NCBI GenBank assembly: GCA_038204425.1
Contig: JBBRCZ010000017.1
Span: 1-45,683, forward strand
Direction of reading: 5' to 3'
Source of the DNA: Spirochaetia bacterium
Lineage (GTDB): Bacteria; Spirochaetota; Spirochaetia; DSM-27196; Salinispiraceae
DNA: 45,683 bases
The position numbers were made by a program. Of this stretch, positions 37,901-45,683 are shown piece by piece. Position 1 is the first letter of the stretch; the number at the start of each line of letters is the position of its first letter.

Positions 37901-40900
37901 GCGGTATCCGTTTTCTGTTTCAGCCGTGATACAAACGGCGAGAAAAAAAGCATACCTGCTATCAAAAAACCACTCAGTATCTTTCCAAGTTCAGGAAGAA
38001 ACTCCAGGAGCAGGTCATTAGTAGATGAAAACATTGTTGCGAGAAAACTCCACTTAATTACATAAATTTTTAAAATAGTTCATAGATTTCCGGGCGATTG
38101 TCTTGCATAAAGCGCATGGCTGTCAAGGTCAAACCATTGCAGGTCAAACCAGAGAGATTACATTCAAAACAGGGTGCACTAAGTTTGAAGCGTTGATAGC
38201 CAAAGAAAGCCAGGCTTCTCCACTTCGTTTGCGTCCCGTCAAGAGCGATACATCAAGTGTGCGGATACTATAGCTCTTGCCCAGATGCGAGCAAAAGTCA
38301 GGACTGGCGTTAGCTTCTAAGCTGTGACTAGCTATGCTCTGTCCCCAGGCTTTTACCAAGGCCTCTTTTCTTGTCCACATACGCATAAACGCAGAGCACC
38401 ACTCTTTTTGTTGGAGCTCATTGAATGCACCTTTGTCACTGAGCATCTCTTGTTCGTCTGGTGCAAAGAACTGTTTTACAACTTCCTTCTTCTTAAGGTT
38501 GTCTCTTTCCAAGTCGGCTTGGGACCGTTCAGGTACTAATTCGATATCTACGCCAATCTCGCTGGCCGCAAAGGCAAGAGCAGCATGCTTGCCATGGTGA
38601 CTCATGTTAAAAAAAACGCCCTGATTTTCCTCGAGGTAGGGTTTACCGTGCGGATTGCACTGTAAGGCAAATGCACCATCTTGATGAACATACCAGGCCA
38701 AGGCATGTCCCAGCGCCATGCGACCAGCTATAAATGCAGCTTTGTCGGCCAAGCGTAGTGCGCTTGCTATGCGTAGATCATCTTCCATGCCAAAGGCTAA
38801 GGGAAATCCTGAATCTGCGCGAATCTGCGATGCAGGCTTGCCTTCGCTCAGTTGTTTAAGAACTCGGTCTTGGACTAGCGAAAGATCATAGACCCACAGA
38901 TGAACTATGCCCTTCTTTAACTCTTCAATCTTAGTATCTGAGCTCATAGCATGTGACTCCAATCCGATATTTGATTTTATAACCGAAATAGGCTATTGTA
39001 TGCAAATTAAAAGCAAGGAGCTATTACATTCATGAGTCTCAATGAACGACGTGTTGTTATTACAGGCATGGGTGCCATTACCCCTATTGGCCTAGGTGTC
39101 AATAATTTTTGGGATGCTCTGGAGCAGGGTAAGTCTGGCGGTCGTAAACTTAAGAACGTTGACATGGGCGACTACCATGTGCAAATTGGCGCAGAAATTG
39201 ACTTACCAGAAAACTACAAAGACTACTTTATTCACAAAAAGATGGCAAAGCGACTTGACCGTTATGTTATACATAGTGCCATTGCCGGTTCGCAGGCCAT
39301 TGCCGACGCGGGGCTTGACATAGAAGCCAGTCCTGAACGCTATGGCTCGCTAATCGCTACCGGTGACGGTGGCCTTGACACCAACTACGAACAAATAACC
39401 CGCATGGCTACTAAGGGTCCCAATACCATTAGTCCGTTCTTTATCACCAGCACCATACCCAGCACTGCCGCAGCATTCTTGAGTCTAGAACACAATTTAC
39501 AGGGTGTCAGCTTTGGTGTTAGTAGCGCTTGCGCCTCGGCCAACCACGCCTTGGGTCTTGCAGTAATGTTTATAAAAATGGGCATGGCTGACGCTATTTT
39601 TGCAGGAGGTGCTGAAGCTGTCTGTAACCCTCCAAGCTTGGCGGCCTTTGGCAATATTGGTGCTCTTTCTACTCGCAACGACGATCCATTAACGGCTTCC
39701 CGACCCTTTGATCGCGACAGGGACGGCTTCGTAATGGGTGAAGGCGCTGGCATCTTGTGCCTCGAAGATTTCGAGCACGCTAAAAAACGTGGTGCTAAAA
39801 TTTACGCCGAGGTGAGTGGTTTTGGCTTTACGTCTGACGCACATGACCTAGTTGCCCCTCATCCAGAAGGCAAGGGAGCGGCTCGTGCAATTGTGGAATC
39901 ACTTAATTTGGCAAAGCTCAATGCCGCTGACATTGGTCTCATCAACTGTCATGGTACTTCGACACCGGCTGGCGACTATGGCGAATGTTTGGCGATTAAT
40001 CTAGCCTTTGGTAGTGACCTTGCCTCAACTATTCCGGTCCAATCAACCAAGTCGATGACAGGCCATTTAATTGGTGCTACCAGTGCTGTAGAAGCTATTG
40101 CGTCCATCATGACGTTTGAACGCGGCATCATACACAAAACCATCAACCAGTTTAACCAAGATCCCACCATCAACTTCAATGTAGCTAAAGAAAACCTTGA
40201 TGGCAAAAAAGTAGACCACGTCTTGTCAAACGCCTTTGGTTTTGGCGGCCACAACGCCTGCGTTATCCTATCAAGGTTTAAGGGCTAAACTCGCCAAATC
40301 AGTCCAGCAAATAATATGGTTGCAATATTATTGCAGCACTATTGTAGCAGCTTTCTTGCAGAACTTTAATTCTGCAAGAAAGCTTTAGCCCACCTCTTAG
40401 TCTATAATCATTACTTCACCGCAGGTTACTACCGCAACTTTGCCCCTTACGATGGCTTGACCAATTACGGTTGCAAAATAGCCATCAAAAGACAGCCTCT
40501 TGGCAAGCAAAACGACTTCGTCCCCGGGCAGGATTGGTTCGATAAACAAAGCACCCATTATCCTTGTGGCACGCAGCTGAATTGGCTTTGCATCGTCAGC
40601 AATGTCGTTCCTATTGTTGGCAACAAAATAGTACATGCACAATCCAAGCTGACCTATCGATTCGACAGTAAAGTTGCCAGGATAGACGGCAAAATCTGGA
40701 AAATGTCCAAGAAAGACGGGGTCATCCTTGGCAATTAAGCGACGACCCGCCATTAGACCTTCGTTTGGATCATAAGTGTCAAGCTTATCAACGTAGAGTA
40801 GTGGTGAGCGATGGGGTATAATTTTTTTTATGTCTGCCTCGCCATAGTTTAAAGTAACTGGGAGTTGATCCTTGTCAAAAAGTGGTTTTTTTCGAAAGCT

Positions 40901-43900: not shown

Positions 43901-45683
43901 TGTAAAACCCATATTCATAAAAACAGCGCCATAACGGCTTTCGTTAGCCATAATGACGATGTCTGAACATAGGCCAATCACCAAGCCGCCGCCCATGGCA
44001 TGTCCTTCCATTGCACTAATTATTGGAAATCGAGCATTGATCAGGCGTTCCGATATCACAAGGTCGCGGACAACTAACTTGCCCAGGGCAAGCTCCATCA
44101 AACTCTCTTTGTCAGCGCCGCCCGAGAACGTTTCTGATAGTCCGGCGATGATACATACCGTGGGTTGGGCCTCTTCGATCTTGTCCAAAACCTTGAGAAA
44201 GGCATCAACAAAGGCGTGACTAAAGACGTTGTTGCGCTCAACATCTTGCATGGTGAGTGTTGCGACACGTTTAGCGTCTATTACGTAATCAATTATTGGT
44301 TTATTCATCTAGTGGCTCCCCACAAAAAAGTGCTTCTTTAGTTTTAAGCTTAGCAAACCACGAGGGGCTATTGCCTTCAAAAAACGCTTGCAAAGCTGAT
44401 GTAAGCTGCGGTCGCTTCATCAGGCTTAGTAACTCGTTCTGAGCCAGCGTCAGTTTTTCTTGATCAGAAGCTTGATATAGCTTTAGTGAAAAGACTTTGC
44501 TGCGTTCCAAGGCGCCTGGTTCTGCGCGCAGCAAATTTCGCAGTAGCTTTTTGAGACCGCTTTCTGCTTCGGCCGGAGCGTAGACTTCGTCTGCCAGCCC
44601 GCAGCCCAGCAGTTCCTGACCTTCGACAAGTTTTGCACTCATTATCAAGTAGCGCGCCTTTTGCAGACTCATACGCCTGCCAATCAAAAAGGGCATTACG
44701 TTGGCAGGAATCAAGCCAAAAAGCACTTCTGACAACTCAAAGCTGGTTCGGTCGGTGGCAACAATCATGTCGCAGGCAGCAGCCAGACCCACGCCACCGG
44801 CCTTAACCGGTCCAGCAATGGCTGCCACAATTGGCTTGGAGCAGCTGCTTATCCGAGTTAGTAGCTCACCGTAGGCGATCACTGAATCCTGGCGAGCATC
44901 CTGGTCATTGTCACCAAGACTTGTACCAAGCCGGTCTAGATCCATACCCAAACACCAGCTTTTACCCCAGGCGCCTGCACGTAAGACGATTACTCGTACT
45001 TCTTCGTCCTGCAAGGCGGTTTCTAAGGCTTGGCGTAGGGCATCAAGTCGTTCGGCATTGAGTCGATTCCCCGCCTGGTCGGCCATGGTGATCAAACCAA
45101 GACCTTCCAAACTGCGATAGTCGAGATTGAGAGCGTCCTTCATTAGGCTCGCTCGTAATTGCGATAATAGTCTTTGACATCCTTGAGAACCAGCAAACCA
45201 CTACCCTTGTAATGCTTGTCGTACCAGTTATCCAAAATGCTAAAGTCAGGAACCCAGTCACCGTTTTCGATGTTCTTGTCGCGCAATTTTTCTACAGCTT
45301 CATATTCGGCAACGGTCACCTTACGGCGTGCGTCAAGGTGTTCGTCAATCTTCATGGCTTTAACAACATCAAAGGCACCCTTGCAAATCGTAGCTGAGTA
45401 AAACTCACCTATTGCACCGGAGCCGTAGGCAAAAAAGCCCAGTCTATCGCCTTCTTTGAGGCTAGGGTCGCCGATAATAACCGAAGCAAGCCCAGCAAAA
45501 TTGGAACCCGCGTAGCACGAACCTACACGACGAGCATAACGCAGGGCTGGAAAAACTCGTTTGTCAAAGTCGTCTTGCAATTCGGGCTTCTTCTTGGGCG
45601 CAAAGTTGCGCGTCAAGGTGCGGTGGGCCTGAAAGGTGATACCAGCGAATGGCGTGTGATAAATGATGTACTTAAAATACTTG

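Follow-up and report, generated by a model that had tools for sequence, protein, structure and literature searches.

A contig-split spirochaete operon proposed to make a methyl-branched amino lipid

Introduction

What could a spirochaete make from fatty-acid-type enzymes, a beta-branching cassette of the polyketide kind and a PLP-dependent alpha-oxoamine synthase (AOS), all encoded side by side? The question is raised by the end of a 45,683-nucleotide contig of a Spirochaetia bacterium (contig C17, analysed over its full length and called here the window), and by the end of a second contig of the same genome, C20, where the locus continues. The locus joins fatty-acid enzymes of its own to a methyl-branching set and an AOS, and we conclude from this that the product is probably an undescribed branched, sphingolipid-like membrane lipid. 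We found no paper describing such an operon.

Results

Two contig ends form one locus

Genes in the window were assigned from ORF coordinates together with Pfam and NCBIfam profile matches (Table 1).

Table 1. Features of the locus in the window and on contig C20.
Feature	Position	Strand	Match or content
PPTase, Sfp/AcpT-type 4'-phosphopantetheinyl transferase, 272 aa	38144..38962	-	PF01648 E 2.6e-12
FabF2, FabF-like elongating ketosynthase, 418 aa	39032..40288	+ (strand opposite to cluster)	NF005589
FabZ-like 3-hydroxyacyl-ACP dehydratase (DH), divergent, 178 aa	40397..40933	-	PF07977
AOS, PLP-dependent alpha-oxoamine synthase, 431 aa	41030..42325	-	PF00155
ACP, dedicated acyl carrier protein, 82 aa	42405..42653	-	PF00550
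SDR of enoyl-ACP-reductase type (ER), 276 aa	42704..43534	-	PF13561
ECH2-type decarboxylase, 250 aa	43556..44308	-	NF005496 above cut-off
ECH1-type crotonase, putative HMG-ACP dehydratase, 280 aa	44301..45143	-	PF00378
HMG synthase (HMGS), 3' part of gene, runs off window end	45143..45683	-	PF08540
141-nt assembly overlap with reverse complement of C20 end	45543..45683	.	exact, unique in genome
HMGS 5' part	G000:C20:31807-32639 (contig end)		
Second cluster half	G000:C20:27608-32639		GNAT, FabD-type AT, KS, FabG-type KR, HMGS 5' part

The terminal 141 nt of C20 are the exact reverse complement of the terminal 141 nt of C17, and this sequence has no other copy among the 24 contigs of the genome. 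Because the two ends share these unique, identical bases, the HMGS gene is intact: read across the join, it is a single 410-aa frame that aligns with an orthologue over residues 1-410. Logan contigs from three runs (two studies, possibly the source samples) continue unbroken for 1.1-1.6 kb beyond the C20 end. The preliminary description had placed the cluster on these two contig ends and had deduced the integrity of HMGS from relatives; the overlap now demonstrates the join directly. From GNAT to DH the genes overlap or are closely spaced, as a tight operon. That the whole, 13 genes in ~12.4 kb, is one operon for a methyl-branched amino lipid is the reading towards which we lean.

The order GNAT-AT-KS-KR-HMGS-ECH1-ECH2-ER-ACP-AOS-DH recurs without gaps in 10 of the 12 related genomes examined from the same taxonomic order. 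Counted by family, the cluster is present in 6/7 further members of the family to which the window belongs and in 4/4 of family f11, and its gene order returns in Spirochaetales and Brevinematales MAGs (loci L002 and L006). At locus L010 the order is kept from KS through FabZ, with GNAT and AT absent from the cluster and the upstream flank visible; at L009 the contig begins inside the cluster, so that the upstream part is out of view. Both of these genomes have GNAT paralogues only (30-33% identity). A further MAG (locus L007) carries the ECH2 gene and ACP-AOS-DH on different contigs. In a deltaproteobacterial MAG (L008) GNAT sits beside ACP-AOS as the only genes of the cluster, and the genome holds no ECH2 orthologue. 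ACP adjoins AOS in every locus examined, this one included, while homologues of PPTase and FabF2 lie beside the cluster in 7 and 8 of the 12 related loci, respectively. Gene-order recurrence is far above chance expectation, and the synteny reported earlier holds, the deltaproteobacterial MAG sharing GNAT, ACP and AOS alone.

The beta-branching cassette

Residues Glu80, Cys112 and His240 of HMGS are invariant in all 13 aligned rows. A full-length orthologue scores 264 bits with CurD, 238 with PksG and 230 with 8s81, all ACP-dependent, and only 176-212 bits with HMG-CoA synthases, among which the M. xanthus enzyme is the best match. It aligns end to end with CurD and PksG, including a C-terminal extension that is absent from HMG-CoA synthases, and is without the 10-residue loop insertion found in both, a difference that counts against our best reading. 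Judged from sequence, HMGS is of the ACP-dependent type with a Glu/Cys/His triad. The acceptor of CurD is acetoacetyl-ACP; its rank as best match is an observation in favour of a branch at the iso terminus.

ECH2 exceeds the cut-off of NF005496 (251.7 bits against 215), and the only solved structures that it matches at E<=1e-22 are the CurF ECH2 and PksI. Its His230 is invariant (17/17 rows), and its homologues are labelled 'polyketide synthase' or PksI in source annotations. ECH1 is less distinctive: NF005498 gives 131.5 bits, under the cut-off of 250, the matches in the PDB are generic crotonases and hydratases only, and a likeness to gamma-carboxygeranoyl-CoA hydratase is seen as well. Glu139 is kept in 16/16 rows. 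We assign ECH1 mainly because of its position between HMGS and ECH2. The discrete HMGS/ECH1/ECH2 set of the preliminary description, with ECH1 as a putative member, is borne out by the matches of HMGS to CurD and PksG and by those of ECH2.

Ketosynthase, carrier protein and fatty-acid-type enzymes

The cluster KS has Cys179 in 14/14 rows and both His320 and His357 in 13/14, so the active Cys-His-His ketosynthase proposed before keeps its triad in the alignment. Canonical HMGS cassettes use a condensation-incompetent KS0, as stated in an excerpt of PMC11522927; the invariant Cys rules out this decarboxylase identity here. The same departure from KS0 is a point for the iso terminus.

Among solved structures, the ACP is closest to the donor ACP CurB (39 bits, E 6.5e-9), a weak but specific match: the next ACPs reach ~25 bits and FAS ACPs an E of about 2e-4. 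The cluster contains no second, acceptor-type ACP and no PKS module. HMGS systems tell donor ACPs apart from acceptor ACPs (PMC11522927, in excerpt), and the presence of only one ACP counts against our best reading. For the PPTase, the HetI and AcpT models both match under their cut-offs.

In the SDR, Tyr156-x6-Lys163 is invariant (19/19 rows) with the spacing typical of enoyl reductases; of the NCBIfam models, FabL scores highest, with 100.7 bits under a cut-off of 328. The DH retains His77 and Glu91 in 19/19 rows, and FabZ models score 70-71 bits, below cut-offs of 113-155. The FabG-type KR, at 225 bits, likewise stays under its equivalog cut-off (297.75). FabF2 is above the cut-off of NF005589 (473 against 387 bits) and below that of TIGR03150 (475 against 493.75), and the FabD-type AT, at 258.9-259.2 bits, compares with an equivalog cut-off of 260.9. 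The AcpK-like ACP and the FabI-like reductase of the earlier account are in keeping with these matches, the latter being of enoyl-reductase type by its Tyr-x6-Lys spacing.

FabH, FabG, FabF, AcpP, FabZ and FabV are all located outside the cluster. KR, DH, ER and FabF2 each have a housekeeping counterpart elsewhere in the genome, among them FabF on C4 (41% identity to FabF2), FabZ on C13 and, as enoyl reductase, FabV on C1; MvaS belongs to a mevalonate operon and BioF to one for biotin. The genome has no FabD other than the AT, which is thus a housekeeping gene and gives no weight to a dedicated pathway. The malonyl-CoA:ACP transacylase is present as had been claimed, and it is not a cluster-specific part. 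With this one exception, the enzyme set of the cluster is extra. We considered whether the set could be the housekeeping type II FAS itself and rejected this: AT alone is a sole copy, and KR, DH and ER remain under their cut-offs.

The alpha-oxoamine synthase and the N-acyltransferase

The AOS falls under every NCBIfam cut-off, those of the Spt models included (NF047600, 331 bits against 640; NF047599, 273 against 500; NF047603, 235 against 670). Its best solved match is the Sphingobacterium SPT (SmSPT), with 273 bits versus 225 for KBL, and CqsA-type chains are matched too (E about 1e-31). Conservation extends to the PLP Lys, to the stacking His and, within the DxAH motif, to Asp and His. We compared the residues of SmSPT that contact L-serine (Asn52, Ser81 and the loop Gly80-Asn85): Asn52 is replaced by Tyr in 22/22 AOS rows, Ser81 is Ala or Ser, and Arg82 is Pro in 21/22, which gives the clade a substrate loop of its own. 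A quick tree recovers the clade as monophyletic, set apart by a long branch (length 2.1); with two unvalidated references, it places the AOS not as sister to Bacteroidota Spt/CFAT-like proteins and groups it with KBL (SH-aLRT 90).

Membership in Spt finds no support, with all three models missed and the serine-contact residues changed. The same two results leave serine use unsupported, and the sequence suggests that the amino-acid substrate is possibly not serine. Of the 'serine-palmitoyltransferase-like' label in the preliminary description, the best solved-structure match survives; the missed Spt models, the long branch of its own and Tyr/Ala at Asn52/Ser81 tell against the rest.

The GNAT matches no curated NCBIfam family and PF00583 weakly, and its homologues, 39-43% identical among cluster-bearing genomes, carry generic names only. 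The predicted fold is a tandem GNAT (TM 0.6 to MAB_4324, MshD and others), a model that resembles amine N-acyltransferases. These matches do not reproduce the bCerS hit of the preliminary description, so that bCerS is here a candidate identity for the GNAT.

Discussion

A proposed pathway

Our main claim is the general scheme, to which we give a little better than an even chance: a dedicated type II line would supply a branched acyl-ACP, the AOS would condense it with an amino acid, and N-acylation would follow. For the branch we prefer the iso terminus, a position reached by inference. The Sfp-type PPTase presumably activates the dedicated ACP, on which FabD, the cell's only copy, would load malonate. 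The Cys-His-His KS would turn malonyl-ACP into acetyl-ACP by decarboxylation and, since its Cys is retained, could also condense to acetoacetyl-ACP. HMGS would add acetate to the beta-keto group; its product would be dehydrated by ECH1 and decarboxylated by ECH2, and the FabI/FabL-type reductase would saturate the double bond to give isovaleryl-ACP. FabF2, KR, the FabZ-like DH and ER would elongate this to a long iso-branched acyl-ACP, which the AOS would join to an amino acid, possibly not serine, as a long-chain 3-keto amine. The tandem GNAT would then N-acylate the amine. The 3-keto group would perhaps be reduced by KR or another reductase; no CerR-type (NDUFA9-like) reductase is seen within the cluster. 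The amino-lipid end of the scheme is favoured by the constant ACP-AOS adjacency, by the GNAT next to ACP-AOS in the deltaproteobacterial MAG and by the tandem-GNAT model; the low identity of the GNAT among cluster-bearing genomes and its absence from the L010 cluster count against it.

A cultured species, Salinispira pacifica, carries an AOS orthologue (P0148), which makes the reading directly testable. When a spot is scored as 'aminolipid', a free amine is implied, and a simple N-acylated base has none. An excerpt of PMC4511686 lists for S. pacifica an unidentified major aminolipid, 11.7% iso-C15:0, and also iso-even and anteiso acids. The aminolipid and the iso-C15:0, in a species with an AOS orthologue, speak for our best reading; the free amine implied by that spot counts against it, as do the iso-even and anteiso acids. 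The genome studied here encodes a 2-oxoacid-dehydrogenase E1-KASIII fusion, so that iso chains can also arise from branched amino acids. We hold only tentatively, and with more doubt than belief, to the full version of the proposal, in which the iso chain is made from acetate alone on the dedicated ACP, a new AOS clade uses a non-serine amino acid, and the product is a sphingoid-like lipid of a new class, perhaps the aminolipid of S. pacifica.

Other explanations

The cassette might instead act late, on a long beta-ketoacyl-ACP that FabF2 has built. The KS would then only supply acetyl-ACP, and the methyl, carried by a 3-methyl acyl chain, would lie at C5 of the base, close to the head group and not at the iso terminus. 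In most known cassettes HMGS does act on a grown chain on an acceptor ACP (PMC11522927, in excerpt), FabF2 is a near-canonical elongating KS, and ER comes directly after ECH2, so that every gene is left with a role. A pure decarboxylase, however, needs no Cys, yet the KS conserves it throughout; HMGS is without the loop of CurD and PksG, and the acceptor ACP that a late cassette would use is missing. We regard this course as unlikely.

Alternatively, the HMGS and FAS-like genes could feed the general fatty-acid pool, making isovaleryl primers from acetate for iso-odd acids. Acetoacetate would then be carried by AcpP, the cluster ACP would be an acetyl donor only, as its likeness to CurB would fit, and AOS and GNAT would belong to a distinct function encoded alongside. 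FabD is common to housekeeping synthesis, the ECH2 gene lies on another contig than ACP-AOS-DH in the L007 genome, and iso-C13:0 and iso-C15:0 occur in S. pacifica and are absent from two of the three Spirochaeta strains compared, in the excerpt of PMC4511686. Against this stand the constant ACP-AOS adjacency, which extends to a genome without the cassette, the tightness of the operon, and the extra KR, DH, ER and FabF2, which would merely duplicate the housekeeping set; on these grounds we find the idea improbable. We give still less credence to a small or diffusible secondary metabolite, whether a polyketide or a CAI-1/LAI-1-like signal, an alpha-amino ketone that is N-acylated. AOS enzymes do make autoinducers too, and CqsA-type chains are among the matches; polyketide pathways are where HMGS cassettes are otherwise known (PMC11522927, in excerpt), and the annotations of ECH2 homologues point the same way. 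But the operon contains no PKS/NRPS module, transporter or regulator, its full KS/KR/DH/ER set together with an elongating FabF points to a long saturated chain, the only FabD of the cell is embedded in it, and it is conserved vertically in whole families, which makes such a product very improbable.

If the branched amino-lipid reading is true, HMGS/ECH1/ECH2 branching chemistry, otherwise known from polyketide natural products, would here serve a membrane lipid for the first time, and the operon would be a type II counterpart to the bacterial sphingolipids of PKS origin found recently. A new AOS clade would be added, the Spirochaetota would join the makers of sphingoid-type lipids, and methyl-branched chains would have a source that does not depend on leucine, a point that bears on how branched-lipid biomarkers from anoxic sediments and microbial mats are read.

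Comparison with known systems

The HMGS (HCS) cassettes of PKS pathways, both trans-AT and cyanobacterial, such as those of bacillaene (AcpK/PksC/F/G/H/I) and curacin (CurB-F), share with the spirochaete cluster a discrete ACP, AT, KS, HMGS and ECH2, with ECH1 putative on the spirochaete side, and an HMGS with a Glu/Cys/His triad and C-terminal extension. In the curacin pathway an enoyl reductase follows ECH2, as it does here. Unlike these PKS cassettes, the spirochaete cluster lacks both a PKS assembly line and a module with an acceptor ACP, its KS keeps the active-site Cys where theirs is KS0, its ER is an SDR and not an MDR, its HMGS is without the loop insertion of CurD and PksG, and the cassette is joined to FAS-type KR, DH and KS and to an AOS.

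The myxobacterial AIB pathway (MvaS, LiuC, AibA/B, AibC) yields isovaleryl-CoA for iso-fatty acids by the chemistry proposed here, from acetoacetyl through HMG, 3-methylglutaconyl and 3-methylcrotonyl to isovaleryl, independently of leucine (PMC5389471, in excerpt). The spirochaete intermediates would differ in being ACP-bound, the decarboxylase in being a crotonase (ECH2) rather than AibA/B, and the reductase in being an SDR. We read this likeness as functional analogy, not membership.

Bacterial sphingolipid synthesis uses Spt, a dedicated ACP, bCerS and CerR in Caulobacter, and Spt in Bacteroidota; the logic of the pathway is set out in PMC11087976 (in excerpt). There, too, an AOS stands beside a dedicated ACP and a GNAT-superfamily N-acyltransferase, and a Bacteroidota SPT is the best solved match of the spirochaete AOS. 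The latter, unlike Spt, is under all Spt cut-offs with an altered substrate loop; neither an acyl-ACP synthetase nor a CerR-type reductase is seen in the spirochaete cluster, and the acyl chain is apparently built de novo by the cluster, with a branching cassette. A precedent is PfSgaAB of Pseudomonas fluorescens MYb115, in which an iterative type I PKS feeds an AOS on the way to sphingolipids (PMC12134224, in excerpt). In both systems a dedicated polyketide- or fatty-acid-type synthase would hand its chain to an AOS for a long-chain base; the spirochaete enzymes, unlike PfSgaAB, are discrete (type II), include an HMGS cassette and are linked to a GNAT.

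A conserved operon divided by a contig break

The lipid genes at 38144-45683 of the window form part of a real, intact and conserved operon, the other part of which lies at the end of contig C20 (locus L001) of the same genome (24 contigs, 95.6% complete). C20 and C17, the contig of the window, end in the same 141 nt, one end being the exact reverse complement of the other, and this overlap is unique within the assembly. After joining, the HMG-ACP synthase (HMGS) is a single 410-aa frame, and the orthologue alignment spans residues 1-410. The C20 end is also covered by Logan contigs from three public runs of two studies, which may be the source samples and therefore do not count as independent evidence. 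These contigs extend 1.1-1.6 kb past the end without difference or break, and all sampled words of window 44900-45683 are found in the same runs. The overlap, the joined frame and the Logan contigs show that the HMGS gene is intact and that the supposed assembly gap is a graph break. The preliminary description had assigned the two contig ends to one cluster, which the exact overlap and the joined synthase bear out. Its anatomy is also correct, as the nine ORFs in the window fall into the Pfam and NCBIfam families that it listed.

The joined operon measures ~12.4 kb, with the genes from the putative N-acyltransferase (GNAT) to the FabZ-like dehydratase (DH) overlapping or closely spaced, and the composition profile shows no shift at the cluster. 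A scan of 37900-42800 gave 12 promoter-like sites (6.3 +/- 2.8 expected) and 6 terminator-like sites (4.9 expected), none informatively placed. Genes for a Dus-like tRNA-dihydrouridine synthase and a GGDEF-EAL protein are present on both outer flanks. Such pairing might reflect a duplication of the flanks, or the cluster may have entered between two paralogues.

Genes of the cluster, their housekeeping counterparts and other features of the window's genome (G000). AOS, alpha-oxoamine synthase; AT, FabD-type acyltransferase; SDR (ER), enoyl-reductase-type SDR; FabF2, FabF-like KS of the cluster. The last column gives residues and the orthologue rows that keep them.
Feature	Location	Family match or context	Residues kept
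PPTase, Sfp/AcpT-type	window		
FabF2	window, opposite strand	NF005589, 473 bits (cut-off 387, passed)	
DH, divergent FabZ-like	window		His77, Glu91: 19/19
AOS	window	class I/II aminotransferase fold	
ACP, 82 aa	window		attachment-motif Ser: 21/21
SDR (ER)	window		Tyr156-x6-Lys163: 19/19
ECH2	window	NF005496, 251.7 bits (cut-off 215, passed)	His230: 17/17
ECH1, second crotonase	window		Glu139: 16/16
HMGS	C-terminal part in window, running off its end; N-terminal 277 residues at C20 end (L001)		Glu80, Cys112, His240: 13/13
KR, FabG-type	C20 end (L001)		
KS	C20 end (L001)	best model NF005490 'polyketide KS', 299 bits (below cut-off 445)	Cys179: 14/14; His320, His357: 13/14 (exception L087)
AT	C20 end (L001)	259.2 bits (cut-off 260.9)	
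GNAT, 378 aa	C20 end (L001)	no curated family	
FabH, FabG, FabF	C4		
AcpP	C3		
FabZ	C13		
FabV	C1	553.7 bits (cut-off 403, passed)	
Second HMGS	C7	mevalonate operon: HMGS, IDI-2, HMG-CoA reductase, MVD	
Second AOS	C2	biotin operon	
Dus-like/GGDEF-EAL flanks	window 35024-38034; L001:3039-6864		
GNAT paralogue	G000:C11:1621-2796 (L173, -)		
Second lipid- or polyketide-type cluster	G000:C9:40158-54687		
E1-lipoyl-KASIII fusion	G000:C3:173123-176545 (L175:3124-6546, +)		

Distribution and gene order

Scanning the genome collection with the AOS gave nine loci whose match has 62-69% identity. Their MAGs bear the titles Spirochaetales, Spirochaetaceae, Spirochaetota, Brevinematales and, in one case, 'delta proteobacterium'; the next matches reach at most 43%. 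At an identity of at least 65%, the AOS is found in 13 of 41 genomes of the window's order (its own counted), including 6/7 other genomes of its family and 4/4 of family f11, and in none of seven other families among these 41 genomes. Of 80 loci kept from a metagenome scan, just five (L093-L096, L152) hold an orthologue with at least 66% identity, the rest being KBL-like; four of the five lie on short contigs, and no new contexts were gained.

The full order GNAT-AT-KS-KR-HMGS-ECH1-ECH2-SDR-ACP-AOS-DH recurs in 10 of 12 loci of other genomes (34-86% identity), with FabF2 adjoining in eight of the twelve and the PPTase in seven. The two remaining loci are L092, a 3-kb contig, and L086 (genome G004), where an insertion of ~6 kb (about 8400-14500) separates SDR from ECH2 and the cluster leaves the fetched stretch. 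One of the ten, L087 (G039:C33:32000-51700; completeness of the source genome 84%, contamination 7%), appears to be either decayed or misassembled: KS, HMGS, ECH1 and ECH2 give partial matches, HMGS is split in two, and other residues stand in place of both KS His. In L010, from a groundwater spirochaete MAG, two genes (DUF6978 and DUF1828; 6858-8117) stand between ECH1 and ECH2, so insertions are tolerated by the operon, here as in L086. The L010 cluster is without GNAT and AT, and the contig of L009 begins inside the cluster, its upstream part being outside view; both genomes hold GNAT paralogues only (30-33% identity). The genome of L007 carries its ECH2 gene on a separate contig. The deltaproteobacterial MAG has just a divergent GNAT, an ACP and the AOS, with no ECH2 orthologue throughout its 7.5 Mb.

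The branching cassette

Comparison with solved structures gives CurF-ECH2 and PksI as the sole matches of ECH2 at E<=1e-22, and generic hydratases only for ECH1. The role of ECH1 is assigned from its position and its likeness to methylglutaconyl/carboxygeranoyl-CoA hydratase models. HMGS, represented by the full-length orthologue of L084, can be aligned over its whole length with CurD (264 bits), PksG (238) and 8s81 (230), whereas alignments with HMG-CoA synthases (176-212 bits) end near residue 360. HMGS thus has a C-terminal extension of the ACP-dependent type, which the account in PMC11522927 treats as typical of such enzymes. Unlike CurD and PksG, it is without the 10-residue insertion in the beta6-beta7 loop. 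The closest solved structure to the ACP is the donor ACP CurB (E 6.5e-9), FAS ACPs following at ~2e-4. The Tyr-x6-Lys spacing of the SDR follows the FabI/FabL enoyl reductase pattern, unlike that of ketoreductases.

The alpha-oxoamine synthase and the putative N-acyltransferase

The preliminary description called the AOS similar to serine palmitoyltransferase (Spt). Its best solved match is indeed the enzyme of Sphingobacterium multivorum (SmSPT, 273 bits; KBL 225), but it scores far under all curated cut-offs and is nearly equidistant from the KBL-like (346 bits), Spt(CFB) (331), KBL (330) and BioF (324) models. Thirty AOS homologues were compared with the NCBIfam models, namely L008 and 29 proteins of the next-best loci drawn from 66 KBL-like rows; these 29 all score highest with TIGR01825/KBL and therefore serve as outgroup only. 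No canonical Spt above cut-off was present in five genomes reached through the loci; in its place, two Bacteroidota-type proteins below cut-off (559-569 bits) served as references. In a quick tree, the 20 members of the AOS clade come out together with support 100, on a branch 2.1 changes per column long, as a group that is not sister to the Bacteroidota Spt/CFAT-like proteins (support 90, with two unvalidated references).

The active-site description in PMC10196870 shows Asn52, Ala79, Gly80, Ser81 and Phe83 of SmSPT lining the sites for the amino acid and the acyl group. The Asn52 position is Tyr in 22/22 rows of the AOS clade (21 distinct sequences), and the loop of the clade has the form Ser-Gly-(Ala/Ser)-(Pro/Ala)-(Leu/Met)-(Val/Leu)-Ser; Arg occurs there in no row, and Pro in 21 of 22. 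The PLP lysine, the stacking His and an Asp-x-Ala-His motif are kept. The protein is predicted to be a competent alpha-oxoamine synthase of a separate clade, and its amino-acid substrate could possibly be other than serine.

The GNAT, which had been likened to Caulobacter bCerS, has no NCBIfam family match and a weak PF00583 match only; its 646 homologues at E<=1e-10 all carry generic names, and in the ESM Atlas it falls into generic GNAT clusters only. Its AlphaFold model (pLDDT 91.7) is a tandem GNAT, nearest to MAB_4324, a clavulanate-pathway tandem GNAT, a glucosamine N-acetyltransferase and MshD (TM about 0.6). The modeled fold and these likenesses suggest an amine N-acyl- or N-acetyl-transferase. 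For a functional link between GNAT and AOS, the best evidence here is the independent adjacency of GNAT and ACP-AOS in the deltaproteobacterial MAG. As names, 'sphingolipid', 'serine palmitoyltransferase' and 'bCerS' are plausible but provisional.

A paralogue of the cluster GNAT (391 aa, 29% identity, without Pfam match) is encoded at L173, with no lipid genes beside it. Brevinematales-like genomes have two or three GNAT paralogues each.

Relation to primary lipid metabolism

With the exception of FabD, the cluster enzymes are additional to the housekeeping set. The SDR is ruled out as sole enoyl reductase, since FabV is present (FabK and FabI were not found); HMGS as mevalonate-pathway enzyme, since MvaS has its own operon; and the AOS as BioF, since BioF is in the biotin operon. 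The AT is the exception, being the sole FabD-family match of the genome. FabD is likewise single, and each time inside the cluster, in four relatives that bear the cluster, including two with complete genomes; in a complete relative that lacks the cluster, FabD is located elsewhere. The AT is thus the housekeeping FabD of the cell, which links the operon with primary lipid metabolism and means that the AT does not speak for a dedicated line. Contig C9 carries another cluster of lipid or polyketide type, with two KS homologues, a KR, two tandem ACP genes and a FabZ/FabA-like domain within a 585-aa frame.

Proposed pathway and position of the branch

The genes would fall into three blocks: a complete beta-branching cassette (AT, KS, ACP, HMGS, ECH1, ECH2), a second block of FabF2, KR, DH and ER that could provide one full elongation/reduction set, and AOS with GNAT for an amino-lipid head. 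The dedicated ACP would carry a growing methyl-branched acyl chain, which the AOS would then join to an amino acid; N-acylation of the product would follow. Alternatively, the KR might act on the base and reduce its 3-keto group.

For the branch itself, the KS would make acetoacetyl-ACP, which HMGS, ECH1, ECH2 and ER would convert to isovaleryl-ACP. The first steps of curacin biosynthesis run this chemistry as far as 3-methylcrotonyl-ACP. The KS is probably able to make acetoacetyl-ACP because it keeps its Cys, which a mere decarboxylase (KS0, as treated in PMC11522927) does not need. Less probably, the HMGS cassette would instead branch a long 3-ketoacyl-ACP. A methyl branch at the iso terminus is preferred because the Cys is retained, the cassette with ER would give isovaleryl-ACP, and the best match of HMGS is CurD.

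An iso terminus can be set beside the lipids of Salinispira pacifica, the NCBI source of P0148, an AOS orthologue at 70% identity; a Salinispira sp. MAG and Spirochaeta isovalerica are the named sources of ECH2 homologues. According to the lipid data in PMC4511686, one of the major polar lipids of S. pacifica is an unidentified aminolipid, and its fatty acids include iso-C15:0 (11.7%), iso-C13:0 (2.1%), iso-C14:0 (1.6%) and anteiso-C15:0 (4.3%), with iso-C15:0 at 3.0% in Spirochaeta africana and none in Spirochaeta asiatica and Spirochaeta dissipatitropha. These lipids agree with the proposal and are no proof of it, because of the iso-even and anteiso acids, which point to branched amino acid primers too, the E1-lipoyl-KASIII fusion encoded in the window's genome and the free amine that the aminolipid would need. 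A ninhydrin-positive aminolipid requires a free amine. The fusion, a 1140-aa ORF of 2-oxoacid dehydrogenase E1 alpha, E1 beta (transketolase-like), lipoyl and KASIII (FabH) with AcpP ~8 kb downstream, could hand branched acyl primers directly to fatty-acid synthesis.

Comparison with known systems

By its gene content, the operon is a new combination of two known kinds of system, an HMGS branching cassette and AOS-based amino- or sphingolipid synthesis. Our literature search did not find an HMGS cassette together with a sphingolipid, or HMG-ACP synthase together with a membrane lipid, and no described operon of this kind was found in the literature searched. Spt-like proteins have been predicted in 38 phyla (PMC11334938), and the main text of that paper holds no word beginning with 'spirochaet'. 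According to PMC11522927, HMGS occurs in PKS systems of the trans-AT, cis-AT and type II kinds. The myxobacterial AIB pathway, as outlined in PMC5389471, also reaches isovaleryl but with CoA esters, whereas the intermediates proposed for the spirochaete cluster would be ACP-bound. The nearest precedent is the route described in PMC12134224, in which a PKS-fed AOS makes sphingolipids.
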